Assembly: GCA_049513715.1 (NCBI GenBank) | Contig: JBEKVV010000001.1 | Span: forward strand, 800,001-864,000 | From: Candidatus Bathyarchaeia archaeon | Lineage (GTDB): Archaea; Thermoproteota; Bathyarchaeia; 40CM-2-53-6 | DNA length: 64,000 nt | Direction: 5' to 3' | Part shown: in pieces, positions 27,001-33,000 of the stretch | Layout of the letters: each line of letters begins with the position of its first letter | Numbering within the stretch: the stretch's first letter is position 1 | Program-made: the position numbers

Positions 27001-30000
27001 AAGCTACCCCGAAGGTTCCGGGCGAAATACAAAGTCCCAGGAACACGCGTAGAAATTGATCTGGAAAAGGACTCATGGGCTAGGTTTCTGATTGGGGAAT
27101 ACGTCTTCAACCCCAATCATGAAATTTTCGAAAGTTACTTCGGGCGCGGAATGCCTCGGCCAAAAGACGTGAAGATGGGTGAAACAACCTTCCGCGGCAT
27201 GCTTGATTTCGGCGATGCAATTGTGGCCTCCGTTGAAAGATGCCCAGTCGAGCTCCAACCCATGCTCTACCGTGAAATCCTCCTATCCGGAGGTAACTTC
27301 AGCTGGAAAGTGCCAGAGCGAATGGAAGAAATTGCGGTTGATGCTCCCACAAAAGTGAAGCTTCTCCTTCGCGATAAAGGAATCAAGAATGTTTCAGTGA
27401 AGATGACGCAAGCACCGCAGTTTTCCGTGTGGCATGGTTGCATAATCTACGGGTTCGCAGTACCAGAAAACTACGAATGGGATTGGCAGAGATTGGAGGG
27501 GTGGATGAAGCTTAGCTAATCTTCCGATCGAGCAAAGACTCCTGCACTACTTCCTCGCTATGGGTGCACAACAAGACACGACTCAACCCGCAGAACAAGG
27601 AATCCTCTCACTTGTCGCCGGCAACGAGAAACTACGCGTTGCCATATTGAAGAATGATGCCTTCATTCAACGAAACAGAATCCTCGAATCCATATTAGCT
27701 CTAACTGCACAAAGGGGCGCGTTCAGCCAAGTCTACTTGGCTGTGCCTAGGCTCCTCGGCACCGCAATAGACGCTGCCCTATTCCGCTCACATGGCATCG
27801 GATTAGTGCTGTTTGACGAACGTAGAATCGAGGAGGTTGTTGCCCCTCAACCGATTCAAGCGCCACCACCCCAAGAACCGTCGTCCCGTGGTCCCGACCC
27901 AGCAGTCGTGACAGAGCTGGCGACGCTGAAATCAATGTACGCCGAGATGGAAAGAAGCATCACAAGGCTTCGAGATGAATTGAAAGGATTCCAAGAAATG
28001 CCTAGGGCCGCTTCCCCCACTATAGAACCAATCACCCGACCACCGTCGCTCCAACCCAACCCAATCTTCGCTGGCCAAGGTGGTCAGCTGCCATCTTTCT
28101 TCAGCAATAATCCGTGGTTAGATGTCCTCTCGAAACGTGGAAGAGTTGAGGAAGAGCAATTTGCCGCCTGAGACCGTCATCAAAGTACCAATACGAAGAA
28201 TCCCGGTCGTCATAGATACCAAAGACCCTCTGGCACCTGAGCTTGGGCTCGACGATTTCCGCAAACTGTTCGGCCAAGATCCTCAACCTGACAGGTACAG
28301 AGTGATTAGTATCGAGGTGATTACGTCCCCGGACGACCAGCAACCCATGCTCGTTTCGGAATGCGGCAGATATTCGAGGTTTTTGCGCAGGGAAGCCGAC
28401 AATATTTACTTTAGAAGGGAACTCGATGCTCTATAGGCCCGAAAACGCCTTGAAGGTCCCCTAGTGATTTCAGAAATCCCAAAAATGAACAAATTCAGAC
28501 GTGTTCAGGCCTACAGCATGTATCACATGTATCTACAACTTGAATATCGGTGGAGCGCGTCCTGTTGGGCGGTTTGCCTCGAAAATGCTAAGATCCAGCG
28601 CAAGGCTTAAATACGATTATGCCAGGATTATTATAGCTTTCGGGCCGGATGACGTGTTCTGAAGCAGAACGACGTCCGTGGTTGTTCTACTGAGGAGAGA
28701 TGGCTCGAGCGTTAAGCATGGAAAAGGTTGAACAAAAATGAGTACGAGCACAACAACAAGGAAAGTTGGAAAAGTAACCAATTGCCCCGAATGTGGCAGT
28801 GCGAACCTCGTAGAGGATTATGATCTCGGAGAAATCATCTGCCATGACTGCGGCTTGGTCCTTAGCGAGCATGCCCTGAACCAGGGACCTGAATGGCGGG
28901 CCTTTACCAAAGAAGAGAAAGATGAGCGTGGACGCGTAGGTATTCCGACGTCATTCTCGATTCATGATAAGGGACTTTCAACCGTAATAGACCGAGTAAA
29001 CAGAGACGCCTATGGCCGACAACTTCCGCTGGCCACGAGGCTTGAAATGCTGAGGTTGAGGAAATGGCAGATCCGAACCAGGGTGCATTCCTCAGCTGAC
29101 AGAAACTTGGCTCAAGCGATGGCTGAGCTTGACCGCCTGACAGACATGCTCCACATCCCAGCCTCAATAAAGGAACGCGCCGCAATTGTTTACCGCAAAG
29201 CCTTGGATAACGGCCTAGTTAGAGGTCGCTCAATCGCAGCAATTGCAGCCGCATCACTGTACGCCGCATGCAGAATGTCCGAAACCCCAAGAACGCTCAA
29301 AGATGTTTCCGCGGCAAGCAGAATCCGCAAGAAAGACGTCGCCAGATGCTACAGACTACTAGTCAGAGAGCTAGACTTACGAATGCCAGTTGAAGACCCA
29401 GTCAAATGCATCTCTAAGATCGCAACGAAAGTGGAGATATCAATGCCAACGCAACAGCGCGCAATCAAAATCATCAACGAGGCCAAGAGGATGGGCATTG
29501 TTGCCGGCAAGGACCCAATGGGATTAGCTGCTGCATCGCTCTACGTGGCTTGTGTGCTAGAAGGGGAAAAGAAAACCCAGAAAGAGATAGCTGAAGTAGC
29601 CAACGTCACCGAAGTTACCGTTAGAAACAGGTACAAGGGTCTCAAAGAAGCCCTGAAACTTGACATCTAACACGGTTGACGCGGCTTAACAGCTGTCTCA
29701 AACCTTTCTTTTATTTTCCCGATGATTTCCCGTTCGCTCATGCCGAACACTATTGCTTTGCATTCCAATGCGTTCCGTATTGGGTGAACCTTCACTCCTT
29801 CATCCGTTAGGATCCGCATTTCGTCTGAGGCGTTTTCGAAATTCGCTGAAGGCAATACTAGATCCGTCACGCGAACACGACGTGACTTCAGGATCCCAAT
29901 AATTTTCCCTGTCTGCGTCCCGTAGCCACCCAATCCTCCGACGGGCCCAATGTCGAGCTTTACTCCAATCGTTCCTGTGGCAACGATGGACGGCGAAATT

Positions 30001-33000
30001 GACAATCCTGAAAGCTCTGATACGAGAGAAAGGACCATAGCCAATCCTGCACTTGGCCCAGAAACACCTTGGCCTAGCCCGCCCTCCAGAATGCTGCGCA
30101 CTTGGAAGTGTACGTGCACCTTGCTCAAGTCGATGCCACTAACGCTCCAGAGCCATGACCTGACCGCTTCGGCCGCGTTTTCAGCACTTTGAGGTACCGA
30201 CTGGTCCGGAATTACTGCTTGACCAATAACAGCGGATGTCGAGTTGCCTGTCACAGACACGGGCTGCTCTCCGGCAACGATGGGTCTGACAGAGCATTCG
30301 ACCGTAATGATCCCTCCACTGCCGTCCTCTGTGGCATACAATCCGTAAGAGGCTCCGGCGATCGGAGTCGTCGGAATCAGCGCCTCTTCCATCTCCCTCC
30401 GCTGATGCTCTTGGGTTGACTCCAACGCTTGGATTGCTTTCTCGAAATGATAGAGTCGAATGGGGTAATTTGATTCATCTATCCCGCTGAGGTCTGGCAA
30501 CGGTTTCTCGCTTTTTGAGATTTCGATGACATCTTCCAGCCGTTTCAGGTCTGCTTCGTATCGTTTTCTGACAGATGAGGCTTCGACGCCTTCCTTCTTG
30601 GCTCTGAGCTCATATACTGCGCTAAGCTCGGACGCCCACAACCGGTGTGCCTCCGATATGGTCTCGGCGGCTGCTCGCGGGCTAAGGATCCGTTGCAATC
30701 TGAACAGGCGTGTGATTTTCGGCGCGTCAATCTCTGCGTGGAGAAAGCGTTTGAATTTTCTGAGGTGAATTTCTACAACCTCGTTCCATTCCCTGTCGTT
30801 GAGGGGCGTGTGAATGTAGAAGACGTTTGGTTCAAAGCGGTCCCTGGTTGCATTGTCTATGAGATTTTCTTTGTTCGAGGCTGCGATTATGACAATTCCT
30901 TCGTCCGGTTTGATTTCACTTAGCTCCGACTTGACCTGGGCGAGGATCTTGTTCCCGGTCGGATCTGCTCCCCAGAAAATTGCGTCTGCCTCGTCGAGGA
31001 ACAGTATGCACGGGGACCGTTGCCTTGCCACGGCAAACAGGTCCTTAATGCGCTTCTCTGGTTCACCGATGTAGCTTGCGCCGCTCATGAGTTCGCCGCC
31101 TCTGACTTTTATGAAAACAACTTTGTTCTCAGCAGCCGCGACTGAGGCCAGCAACGTTTTCCCTGTACCTGGTGGTCCGAAAAGCAAGAAACTGCAGTTC
31201 GAAGCGTACCCTAGCTCCGACATTTTGCGGTTGAAAGCGAGCGATATGTGGTTAAGCACTTTGTCGCGAACATCATGCAACCCCCCGATATCGTCTCGGG
31301 AAACCTTAGGCGCAACAATGTAAACGGAGTCCATGATTTCCTGGGACTTCCCCTGCTCAACGTAGAATTTCATAGAGTGGGCCGCTAGAGCGAAATCCTC
31401 TAGGGTTACTTTGTAGATTGGTTTGGTCCACTTTGAAAGCGGGCCAGGCATCGACCTTCTTATCGTCTCCAGCAGGGGCACTTCTTTGGCCCGTTTAACT
31501 TCCCTGAAGACGCTCATGATGTCGTTGGGCGTTATCGAGCCATGCCGTCTTAGCGCTGCCTCCCGTTCCATAACCTCCAACACCTCAGTAGGTGAGACGC
31601 CGCGCCACCCTTCTTCGCTCAACCTTTCCGTAACGATGACCAAATGCATGTCCCTTGTTACACCCGAGTCCAAATCTACACGCGTCAGGCGCCTACGAAT
31701 ATCTTCCCGGGTCTGTTCGTATGAGTTTGTGGCCACGATCACGAGCGTTCTTGAATCATTGTTGAGAATCTTGTCGAGCCAGCGGTTGATTTCATCCTGA
31801 ACTCGCGTATCTTCCAGTTCGGTGCCTGTATCTCCTCGAACTTTCTTGCCGAAGCTTTGAAACTCGTCTATGTAGATCACAGAAGGTGATGTTGATGCTT
31901 GCTCCAATAATCGCCCAATCTGTTTCGTGCTCCTGCCGTAGTATTCTGAAAAGACATCTGACCCTTTGATGATTATGGGCGATACGAGGACGCCGTTCTT
32001 GTGTGCTTCAAGGATCATCTGCTTCAATGAAACCATGGTCAGGAATGTCTTCCCAGTCCCGCTTTGCCCGGTGAGGCAGATTGCCTTGGGGAGCTCGTCC
32101 TTGTTGAACCATTTCTTTAGCATGGGATGCTTCAAAACGTGTAGTCTGAATGAATCCAAGAGGAGGTTGTATTCCTTCTCGCGGCCAATCAGCTTCCCAA
32201 CAGCATATCTGTTCGGTGGATACAGCCGGTCTAACCGGTGCTGTATCTTCCGGAACTTCCGGGGGGAGATTCGTGATTTTCTCCAACGGGCGAAATCCTT
32301 GTCCACCGCCCGTAATGGGATGTAGTTTAGCCACCGCAGGAGCGTGTACTTCAGCCACCACTCTGCGTCTCCCTCGGTCCCGGATTCTGTTGGCGCGTAA
32401 TTCTCCATGTCATCAAGGCTGCTTGTCGACATTATGCATCCTCCATCGGTTTCATGTCGAAGGCCTTCTCCATCGTGAAGCGAATCAGGTACATGATTAC
32501 GATCACTCCCAAGGCGAAACCGATTACGAAAAGGTCCCAAAGGGAAAGGAAGTCAAATGAGGCTAGAAACATGAAGCGAAGTATGAACAGAATTAGAAGC
32601 TCGCCGCCCATGATTGCTACAATTGCCGCGAAGGATGCGAGTAGGAATTTGTAAGCAGTGTCCACCCACATGTACGCTTGGTCGCCTCGGTCGACTCGTT
32701 GGTCGGTGGATTCCTTTCTTGACGTTTCCCGGCGAATCCATAAGCCCCCTACTGCAAAGAACTGAACTCCCATCCCAAAGTAGAGCAGTTTCACCCAGAG
32801 TGGAAATGCCTCACCGAATTTTCCAACCCACTTGGCGAAGTTCTGGAACGGCGGTTCCGAGGCAACAACAGGTATCGTATCGTTTGGGTGGGGGTTGAAG
32901 GTAGCGTTGATGTCGAGTTCGAAGGGGCCGCTTGAAAGATAATACGTGGTGGCGTTCCTGGTTAGACCGCTATCCTTGTTCTTGACGAAGAGATTGACAG

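Follow-up and report, generated by a model that had tools for sequence, protein, structure and literature searches.

The window analysed here, a 64,000-nucleotide stretch of contig JBEKVV010000001.1 from a Candidatus Bathyarchaeia archaeon (positions 800,001 to 864,000 of the forward strand), carries on its minus strand a gene for an AAA-AAA-Lon protein (29667..32432); translation runs from ATG to TAG through 921 amino acids without internal stops. Pfam AAA matches two stretches of the protein, best at residues 416-537 (E 1.5e-49), and Pfam Lon_C matches residues 688-885 with 36 bits against a cut-off of 21.1. The top NCBIfam match is CDC48 (TIGR01243), at 167 bits versus a cut-off of 803; the LonA profile TIGR00763 scores 46 bits versus 608 and the LonB profile TIGR00764 21.6 bits versus 516.6. 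The AF2 model has a mean pLDDT of 82.6 and a pTM of 0.65. As the first-pass annotation had proposed, two AAA modules with intact Walker A and B motifs and a Lon domain lie in one chain, with CDC48 as the best NCBIfam model below its cut-off; Pfam, motifs and structure matches agree on the architecture. We ruled out misassembly as the origin of the fusion: the 5-kb stretch is intact, with no differences, on contigs from 4 of 4 sequencing runs that are possibly the source of this DNA, and more than 100 further 90% clusters contain this fusion too.

Conservation was read from 181 aligned rows, which comprise 176 distinct sequences, most of them from close relatives, and from a diverse set of 38 rows at 25-60% identity. 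The chain, encoded on the minus strand throughout, begins with a helical module (residues 22-72; 32217..32369) that is Trp-rich and basic, with 14 Lys or Arg and four Trp, and contains no TM segment. In the AF2 model about 75 residues ahead of D1 are helical or disordered, and the helices of the module (H25-70) have a pLDDT of 62-76; W26 is kept in 32 of the 38 diverse rows. This module is a candidate surface for membrane or partner binding. No TM segment rises above the hydropathy threshold anywhere in the 921-residue protein (P0001), and Pfam finds in it neither a MIT domain nor a CDC48 N-domain.

The first AAA module, D1 (about residues 76-350; 31383..32207), has a Walker A motif (GQSGTGKT, 122-129), a Walker B motif (IYIDE, 186-190), an aromatic pore loop (YYG, 164-166), the sensor-1 Asn (N236) and an arginine-finger region, RRR (246-248). 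The second, D2 (about residues 372-611; 30600..31319), has the corresponding GPPGTGKT (419-426), LFLDE (477-481), YIG (454-456) and N520, together with a shortened second region of homology (SRH) that includes R532 and with Arg586 at the sensor-2 position. The Walker Lys and Glu of both modules are present in every ungapped row of the 181; for D1, K128, D189 and E190 are kept in 164 of 164. In the AF2 model short helices precede the aromatic pore loops (H157-160 in D1, H445-449 in D2), and no strands separate helix 3 from the strand that carries sensor 1 (H203-224 then E229-235 in D1; H491-506 then E513-519 in D2). A helical insert and linker (residues 612-684; 30381..30599; helices H616-684 in the model) leads from the D2 lid to the peptidase; its length differs among homologues, with a long insertion in P0123.

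The Lon (S16) peptidase domain (residues 688-885; 29778..30371) is defined by Pfam Lon_C, by PDB sequence and structure matches and by alignment with LonA. Its catalytic Ser794 (codon 30051-30053) lies in GPSAG (792-796) and its catalytic Lys843 (codon 29904-29906) in GK (842-843); T819 occupies the third Lon active-site position, and the chain ends after this domain with a tail terminating in PRQPC. The conservation of Ser and Lys reported earlier holds in the larger alignment: all 181 rows have both S794 and K843, and 180 have Thr or Ser at position 819; in the diverse set the Ser is found in 38 of 38 rows and the Lys in 37. Ser and Lys are 49 residues apart, versus 43 in LonA, BrxL-like and LonC rows, and in most members the Lys lies 4-6 residues further along the chain than in canonical Lon, a point against the protease reading. 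An insertion that the family carries behind the GG motif accounts for the longer spacing; past the insertion, the Lys column aligns with the catalytic Lys of LonA. The residue before the GPSAG motif (GVSGPSAG) is Ser in 172, Ala in 7 and Thr in 2 of the 181 rows. In the model S794 opens helix 792-808 and K843 lies within helix 839-849.

Structure searches match the domain to Lon peptidases with Z 20.4-21.2 and rmsd 2.4-2.8 over 180-189 residues. Furthermore, D2 and the peptidase of the model align as one unit with complete Lon proteases, namely MtaLonC (420 residues, Z 21.7, rmsd 4.8) and TonLonB (416 residues, Z 21.4, rmsd 4.8), and the peptidase is therefore predicted to sit under D2, as in Lon. 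Judged by sequence, all prerequisites of AAA+ self-compartmentalised proteases are present, and we infer that the protein is an active protease. Retention of the dyad does not by itself establish proteolysis: Ser and Lys are likewise present in the BrxL-like row P0324, and BrxL is not known to require them for its function. In RadA and BrxL the Lon domain serves as an oligomerising base. By analogy, the protein might act at the membrane as a segregase or unfoldase in the manner of Cdc48, with a Lon domain that is mainly such a base and with substrates that pass to the 20S proteasome or to refolding. Lon-like domains of non-proteolytic role (RadA, BrxL, ComM) are indeed among the fold matches, p97, VAT and Rix7 are the top whole-chain sequence and Foldseek matches, at least one homologue (P0146) has a degenerate peptidase, and the genome encodes 20S subunits. 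Even so this explanation strikes us as improbable: Ser, Lys and Thr are kept down to 25-30% overall identity, unexpected for a vestigial site; the C-terminus is taken up by the peptidase, with no Cdc48-like docking tail; and the genome has a Cdc48 of its own. Degeneration is also seen in D1, whose motifs have decayed in a few members (P0135, P0142 and P0154).

The AAA modules were earlier called Cdc48-type, a description that holds for resemblance (tandem AAA modules, top matches) and fails for membership, given the missing N-domain, the separate grouping of both modules and the altered D2 site. In a quick tree of AAA modules, D1 forms its own long-branched group (support 97) and D2 another (support 99-100), and neither nests inside the sampled Cdc48 D1 or D2 groups. 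Grouping of D2 with Cdc48 D2 has a support of 23; placements of D2 with Cdc48 D1 or with CdvC are not rejected (p-AU 0.79 and 0.82, from a comparison in which the free search was suboptimal). Among structures, D2 comes closest to the AAA domain of FtsH (Z 24.6, rmsd 1.7 over 243 residues). The RRR of D1 and the short SRH of D2 resemble the meiotic-clade (Vps4/CdvC) motif, and the RRR hints at a possible descent from Vps4/CdvC, which the trees neither demonstrated nor rejected.

Members of the classic AAA clade (clade 3) lack a sensor-2 Arg and have Ala there (PMC5039278). D1 likewise has no Arg at this position; in D2, R586 lies where Cdc48 has the Ala of GAD, and this residue is Arg in 31 of the 38 diverse rows and Ala in 7. 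The two features of D2 covary without exception (0 of 38): the 31 rows with the sensor-2 Arg have lost the first SRH Arg, and the 7 rows with Ala have a canonical SRH. The switch was probably one event, and the pairing, as read from the alignment, suggests a maintained ATPase site. D2 offers a natural exchange between a second arginine finger and a sensor-2 Arg.

The AAA-AAA-Lon protein occurs in 45 of 58 other genomes of its own family and in 76 of 401 class genomes, in line with the earlier counts. The range first given, the family and other Bathyarchaeia, stands as far as it goes and proves too narrow: among 401 phylum genomes there are 45 positives, 36 of them outside the class, in 7 families. 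Presence is patchy overall and near-complete in some families of the phylum sample (12/12, 5/5). Both archaeal Atlas clusters with AAA and Lon_C were recovered, as was a bacterial cluster of similar make-up (93 members, about 1140 aa); searches aimed at the latter returned ordinary LonA and archaeal members. Three of 44 loci are in records labelled as bacterial. Their proteins are 58-76% identical to P0001, and one locus (L080) has TFB and crenactin neighbours, so these records look like mislabelled archaeal bins. P0138 bears a Nealsonbacteria label. The architecture was again not found described in the literature, as judged from titles and abstracts; tables may still name it.

Neighbouring genes at these loci are housekeeping genes (TFB, SUI1, GTPase, crenactin). 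The convergent arrangement with TFB is confined to part of one order, which rules out a functional link. Synteny is stable within genera. The housekeeping neighbours and stable synteny, with the near-complete presence in some families, make it extremely improbable that the gene encodes an anti-viral or mobile-element ATPase-protease of the IetAS or BREX kind, an idea to which the patchy distribution would otherwise be suited; the PADLOC IetA models that match (E 3e-33) span generic AAA cores only, and BrxL weakly matches the Lon domain of a distant member. Metagenome and viral scans used generic Walker patterns only, and the Cdc48, PAN and FtsH genes that they yielded served as tree references; among the matches listed there was no family member, and no Lon-domain ORF in 145 loci, a count that has no bearing on absence. 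In plasmids, none of 1415 matching records covered 80% of the query.

The genome gave no match to LonB, no M41 peptidase and no PAN over the cut-off. The one other Lon that it encodes belongs to the LonC type and has an altered Walker B, and there is a separate CdvC-like gene. LonB was found in 79 of the 401 class genomes, none of them among the 76 with the AAA-AAA-Lon protein, in a survey that scored only 2-3 candidates per genome; 246 genomes had neither. Across families this exclusion is not significant (P 0.115; 9 versus 7 of 37 families). At the LonB loci that we read, two TM segments are present in 12 of 12.

Directly upstream of the protease gene, and also on the minus strand, is a membrane-protein gene (32432..33376) whose stop overlaps the protease start (TAATG at 32432). 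Its first ATG, at 33196, would give 254 aa, yet the open frame extends to 33376 and the signal helix is encoded ahead of this ATG; translation therefore probably begins at a non-standard codon, for which ATT 33319 and ATT 33370 are candidates. The product comprises a signal or anchor helix, a beta-sandwich domain with five N-x-S/T sequons, an amphipathic helix and three TM helices (AF2 model, pLDDT 86.8). No Pfam family is above its cut-off in 44 members; a fold search gave no clear match (best Z 8.1, helical bundles), Foldseek gave weak matches to Ig-like beta-sandwiches (best E 1e-3), and the Atlas gave only low feature scores, with one archaeal cluster at TM 0.44.

This gene adjoins the protease gene at 64 of 65 loci read, in 63 genomes; 28 of the 64 adjacent partners lie outside the alignments used to build the profiles. 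The two genes are co-oriented at 56 loci and head-to-head at 8, so the pairing survives a change of orientation. There are three partner types, and type tracks protease clade, also in two genomes (G303 and G319) where both paralogues were read. The third type has weak homology to the other two (hhalign probability 52% and 5%). Neighbours other than the partner vary between clades. Treating the protease as a single gene is therefore right for the one-chain fusion and falls short for the system, which most likely consists of two genes. A soluble general quality-control protease with a membrane gene that is merely co-regulated, and does not interact with it, would be compatible with the lack of a TM segment in the protease and with family f42, where the genes are divergent and not co-transcribed; against the adjacency at 64 of 65 loci while other neighbours change, and the stop/start overlap here, it is quite improbable.

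The partner could be a dedicated substrate or sensor of an active ATP-dependent protease, degraded on an envelope cue, or opening or recruiting the protease, in a form of regulated proteolysis rather than tethering. The one-to-one pairing with clade-specific partners fits a substrate or regulator equally well, the outer beta-sandwich would suit a sensor, the acidic C-terminal tail conserved in two of the three types is a possible degron, and the N-module could bind lipids unaided. Several partners consist of only the three-TM module (about 125 aa, without an outer domain), a make-up more in keeping with an anchor than with a sensor, and no regulator gene recurs across clades at the loci read; we regard regulated proteolysis as unlikely. 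Complex prediction of the N-module and D1 with the TM part of the partner scored 0.06 against a mark of 0.32 and weighs neither way.

The reading we favour, and hold to be reasonably likely, is a membrane-tethered ATP-dependent protease that does the job of LonB or FtsH; on the sequence evidence it probably represents a so far undescribed type of energy-dependent protease that acts at the cell membrane. By analogy with AAA+ protease biology, the protein would form a three-tier hexamer of D1 ring, D2 ring and Lon peptidase ring; powered by ATP hydrolysis in both AAA rings, the aromatic pore loops would pull substrates into the Lon chamber for cleavage by Ser794 and Lys843. Since the protease has no TM segment, the partner's TM helices and cytoplasmic loops would hold it at the inner membrane face, as gene linkage and architecture suggest, probably via the basic, Trp-rich N-module. 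Envelope sensing may fall to the outer beta-sandwich of the partner, much as it does to the periplasmic domain of FtsH. The system would extract membrane and membrane-associated proteins that are damaged or regulatory and degrade them, as LonB does in Euryarchaeota, and may fill the LonB role in Thermoproteota lineages without LonB. Known two-ring motors such as ClpA/C and Cdc48 dock onto peptidases that are proteins of their own; with D1, D2 and peptidase stacked covalently, the feeding of one chamber by two rings could be studied directly. An excerpt of one paper (PMC4343526) gives archaea only two ATP-dependent proteases, with LonB probably substituting for FtsH, and the available part of a 2008 survey (PMC2605481) records no Lon in five Crenarchaeota. 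The gene pair is a concrete candidate for membrane-protein clearance in some LonB-less Thermoproteota. The broader proposal, whose chances we see as even, is that archaea have a third type of ATP-dependent protease, the first to hold two AAA rings and the peptidase on a single chain. It would be an FtsH analogue built from a tandem motor of the classic type, a Lon peptidase and a membrane anchor or sensor encoded separately, and would be old within Thermoproteota, having replaced LonB or been replaced by it, lineage by lineage.

Among known systems, Cdc48, VAT and p97 share the tandem classic-type AAA modules and aromatic pore loops with a pore-loop helix; unlike them, the protein lacks the N-terminal double-psi beta-barrel domain, has a fused peptidase in place of the 20S-docking tail, and combines a shortened SRH with a sensor-2 Arg in D2. 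Vps4/CdvC (meiotic clade) has MIT and a single AAA, in contrast to two modules and no MIT match here. BrxL, RadA/Sms and ComM also carry a Lon-like domain on an ATPase ring (Z 16.5-19.1), but their ATPases are MCM-like or RecA-like DNA motors, whereas the modules here are of the protein-translocase type, with no BREX or competence genes recurring nearby. Bacterial and organellar LonA shares GPSAG and the Thr and Lys equivalents, and D2 with the peptidase matches its profile with a probability of 99.8; LonA differs in having a LON N-domain and a single HCLR-clade AAA+ instead of a helical N-module of about 50 residues and two classic-type AAA modules, and in lacking the insertion before the Lys, and where its PKDGPSA motif (PMC2605481, in part) has Asp, all 181 rows here have Ser, Ala or Thr. 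Archaeal LonB (MEROPS S16; T. onnurineus 3k1j, A. fulgidus 1z0e, H. volcanii) has the Lon fold and Ser-Lys dyad C-terminal to AAA+ and shares the probable membrane role; the A. fulgidus enzyme is the best PDB sequence match of the peptidase, and 3k1j aligns with D2 plus peptidase at Z 21.4. LonB, however, has a single AAA+ module with a TM insert, compared with two classic-clade modules without one; its pre-sensor-1 hairpin is missing from the AF2 model, its motif is [E/D]GDSA[S/T] (PMC2605481, in part) rather than SGPSAG, and the membrane link here probably comes from a separate gene. Finally, FtsH, m-AAA and i-AAA likewise fuse a classic-clade AAA to their own peptidase, and the D2 fold is nearest to the FtsH AAA. 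They have an M41 zinc peptidase and their own TM segments, whereas this system has a Ser-Lys peptidase, two AAA rings and its membrane part on a separate gene; jointly, partner and protease provide the same outer domain, TM helices, AAA and protease.

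The gene at window positions 29667-32432 on the minus strand translates as an open reading frame of 921 aa, P0001, in which Pfam places two AAA stretches and a Lon_C domain (residues 688-885) above cut-off. By motif reading, both AAA modules, D1 and D2, carry Walker A, Walker B, an aromatic pore loop, the sensor-1 Asn, and an arginine-finger region. The stretch lies in a single contig with 0 differences in 4 of 4 runs, which may be the source of the same DNA, and the AAA-AAA-Lon fusion recurs in more than 100 further clusters (266 matches, 120 of them listed); about 20 of its representatives are full-length, with identities of 27-61%. 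The fusion is real and conserved, not an artefact; domain matches, motifs, clusters, and runs bear out the first-pass annotation that two AAA modules and a Lon domain share one chain. In one relative (L026 and L085), the protease gene is broken into two frames of 722 and 207 aa, probably by assembly error.

By sequence, the isolated peptidase matches A. fulgidus LonB, human LonP1, and E. coli Lon, and in an AF2 model of the protease (pLDDT 82.6, pTM 0.65) this domain matches solved Lon peptidase domains with Z 20.4-21.2 and rmsd 2.4-2.8. The earlier claim that the catalytic Ser and Lys are retained holds in sequence: S794 and K843 are present in all 181 aligned rows and T/S819 in 180 of them, the rows representing 176 distinct sequences, many of them close relatives; in a diverse set, the Ser is kept in 38 of 38 rows and the Lys in 37. 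A family insertion that follows the GG motif and precedes the Lys makes the Ser-Lys spacing 49 here, not 43. P0136 is a member almost without the insertion, and the multiple alignment still sets the Lys column against the catalytic Lys of LonA; since a pairwise profile comparison with one LonA gaps the GG-to-Lys segment otherwise, it is from the multiple alignment, together with the fold, that the Lys register is taken. P0001 is very probably an active ATP-dependent protease, whose hexamer would, from established AAA+ biology, feed substrate by threading into the peptidase chamber. One member, P0146, has a degenerate peptidase site; beside the dyad kept in the aligned rows, an unfoldase whose Lon domain is structural is an improbable reading. 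Another member, P0135, from a cluster labelled Nitrososphaerales, has an additional C-terminal BSP-family peptidase domain (residues 970-1112) and altered D1 Walker motifs.

The description of the motors as Cdc48-type stands only in part. The top matches of the whole chain are p97, VAT, and Rix7, but CDC48 in NCBIfam scores 167 bits against a cut-off of 803, and every Lon model falls far below its cut-off. In a 92-row quick tree, with reference labels set from motifs, length, and family matches, the family D1 forms its own group (support 97, on a long branch), as does D2 (support 100), and both fall outside the sampled Cdc48 D1, Cdc48 D2, CdvC, PAN/Rpt, and FtsH. A 68-row tree, built without D1 rows and without 5 rows that were long or odd, and whose free search was suboptimal, places D2 with Cdc48 D2 at support 23, and rejects neither a grouping of D2 with Cdc48 D1 nor one with CdvC. 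The nearest structure to D2 alone is the FtsH AAA domain (Z 24.6). In the AF2 model, the short helix typical of the classic clade lies ahead of each pore loop and the pre-sensor-1 hairpin is absent from both modules; by features that tell AAA clades apart (PMC5039278, in the part available), D1 and D2 are therefore not Lon-type modules, and they are not plainly Cdc48 either. D2 is remodelled: in 31 of 38 diverse rows its second region of homology is two residues short and Arg takes the place of the Cdc48 GAD Ala, and in the other 7 the RPGRFD-type motif is complete and the Ala is retained. D2 and the peptidase of the model align jointly with whole Lon proteases across about 420 residues, which suggests that the peptidase stacks on its motor as is usual in Lon. 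The member P0148 has a LAGLIDADG intein at about residues 515-876, just before the D2 sensor-1 motif.

Directly upstream lies a membrane-protein gene (window 32432-33376, minus strand) whose stop overlaps the protease start as TAATG. The predicted partner combines a signal or anchor helix with a beta-sandwich that carries five sequons, and has an amphipathic helix as well as three TM helices; no Pfam family scores above cut-off in 44 members. Given that the signal helix is encoded ahead of the first ATG (33196) and that the frame stays open as far as 33376, with no in-frame ATG, GTG, or TTG upstream of that ATG (window 33196-33376), translation likely starts at a non-standard codon, ATT or ATA. 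No indel in this frame was seen in four runs. Standard gene calls truncate the partner.

At 64 of 65 loci (63 genomes), no more than 400 bases separate the partner from the 5' end of the protease frame; 36 of these 64 were within the alignments behind the profiles and 28 outside them, and 56 are co-oriented and 8, in family f42, head-to-head. At the sole exception, in genome G037, a 77-aa hydrophobic ORF occupies the partner's place. Three partner types follow three protease clades, including in two genomes with both paralogues read. By hhalign, types 1 and 2 are homologues (probability 93.7); homology of type 3 to the other two (52 and 5) is doubtful. No TM segment was found in the protease; set beside the linkage at 64 loci, a soluble enzyme unlinked to the neighbouring membrane gene is very improbable. 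Gene linkage is the basis on which we infer that the two proteins bind, and a membrane tether is the reading that we think reasonably likely: the partner would hold the protease at the membrane through the conserved Trp-rich basic helical module at the protease N-terminus. The enzyme might then turn over membrane-associated proteins, a role that LonB has in H. volcanii (PMC9263693 and PMC4343526, in the parts available). From the same linkage, the partner could instead be a substrate or sensor of the protease, which we consider rather unlikely. The remaining neighbours of the pair differ from clade to clade. We give hardly any credence to a defence system.

An 819-aa secreted or membrane protein that weakly matches Ig-like and zinc-ribbon domains is encoded further upstream (window 36284-38743, minus strand) and recurs within the genus. 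On the other side, the protease stop codon overlaps that of a convergent TFB gene (window 29667-29670), an arrangement kept in the genus and in only some genomes of the order. Just past TFB (window 26251-28436, plus strand) come a crenactin-like gene (547 bits against a cut-off of 630), a small ORF, and a weak match to arcadin-2. Two genomes of the distant family f48 also have a crenactin-like gene, recognised solely by sequence likeness, at a distance of 2.7-3.3 kb from the protease (L164:2870-4141, L167:2490-3773). This proximity may be chance, or may hint at cytoskeletal substrates. In another relative (L062), splits run through the genes for the partner, TFB, and crenactin, again probably by assembly error.

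The protease family was found in 76 of the 401 class genomes, among them 45 of the 58 other genomes of its own family, and in 45 of the 401 genomes of the phylum sample. It is conserved in the family and scattered in Bathyarchaeia, as first described, but its range goes beyond the class, with 36 of the 45 positive phylum genomes outside it, in 7 families; source labels of members read Bathyarchaeia, Marsarchaeota, Nitrososphaerales, Nitrososphaerota, and, for one record, Nealsonbacteria. In the same class sample, 79 genomes carry a gene like LonB (E 1e-70 or better, below the TIGR00764 cut-off), and no genome or family has both. About 15 co-occurring genomes would be expected under independence, which the genomes do not have, and across 37 families the exclusion gives P 0.115; 246 class genomes have neither, with 2-3 candidates scored per genome. 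In the phylum sample, LonB occurs in 27 genomes, with 0 among the 45 protease-positive ones, 4 of which carry a LonC-type gene. Two TM segments were found in 12 of 12 LonB-like loci read. These Bathyarchaeia proteins (L169-L180) are 728-778 aa long, and in the two whose active-site sequence was read the motif is GPSAG, not GDSA.

The genome itself (G000; 99.4% complete, 8.8% contamination) encodes Cdc48, CdvC, 20S subunits, and a LonC-type gene; an M41 peptidase was not found there, nor was PAN above cut-off, though 20S subunits and Cdc48 occur. The LonC-type protease (L003:6372-8771; G000:C2:246371-248770) has a GDSAS/K dyad and an altered Walker B, and genes like it are patchy in the phylum sample. 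A 557-aa protein (L006:5272-6942; G000:C1:622271-623941) pairs one classic AAA module with a TM helix and what looks like an outer domain but has no peptidase, resembling an FtsH-like anchor and motor minus the protease.

Within the literature covered, the architecture was, as first claimed, not found described, and we found no paper on the AAA-AAA-Lon build; arCOG, asCOG, and MEROPS tables, preprint supplements, and subscription papers may list the family. In the parts available, PMC2605481 tabulates Lon_C architectures in 91 genomes without this build, PMC7226402 names FtsH and Lon as the one-chain proteases, PMC10936438 does not mention Lon in its text or 10 of its 12 supplements, and PMC9258230, including 2 supplements, has a single Lon_C family, of LonB type. 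Databases name family members AAA ATPase or Lon protease, and nothing more. By the defining features of LonA, LonB, Cdc48, and FtsH, the protease fits none of these families, and in the literature covered its tandem-motor build would make it a further form of AAA+ protease. Its most likely mode of action is that of a membrane-bound LonB or FtsH equipped with a two-ring motor.
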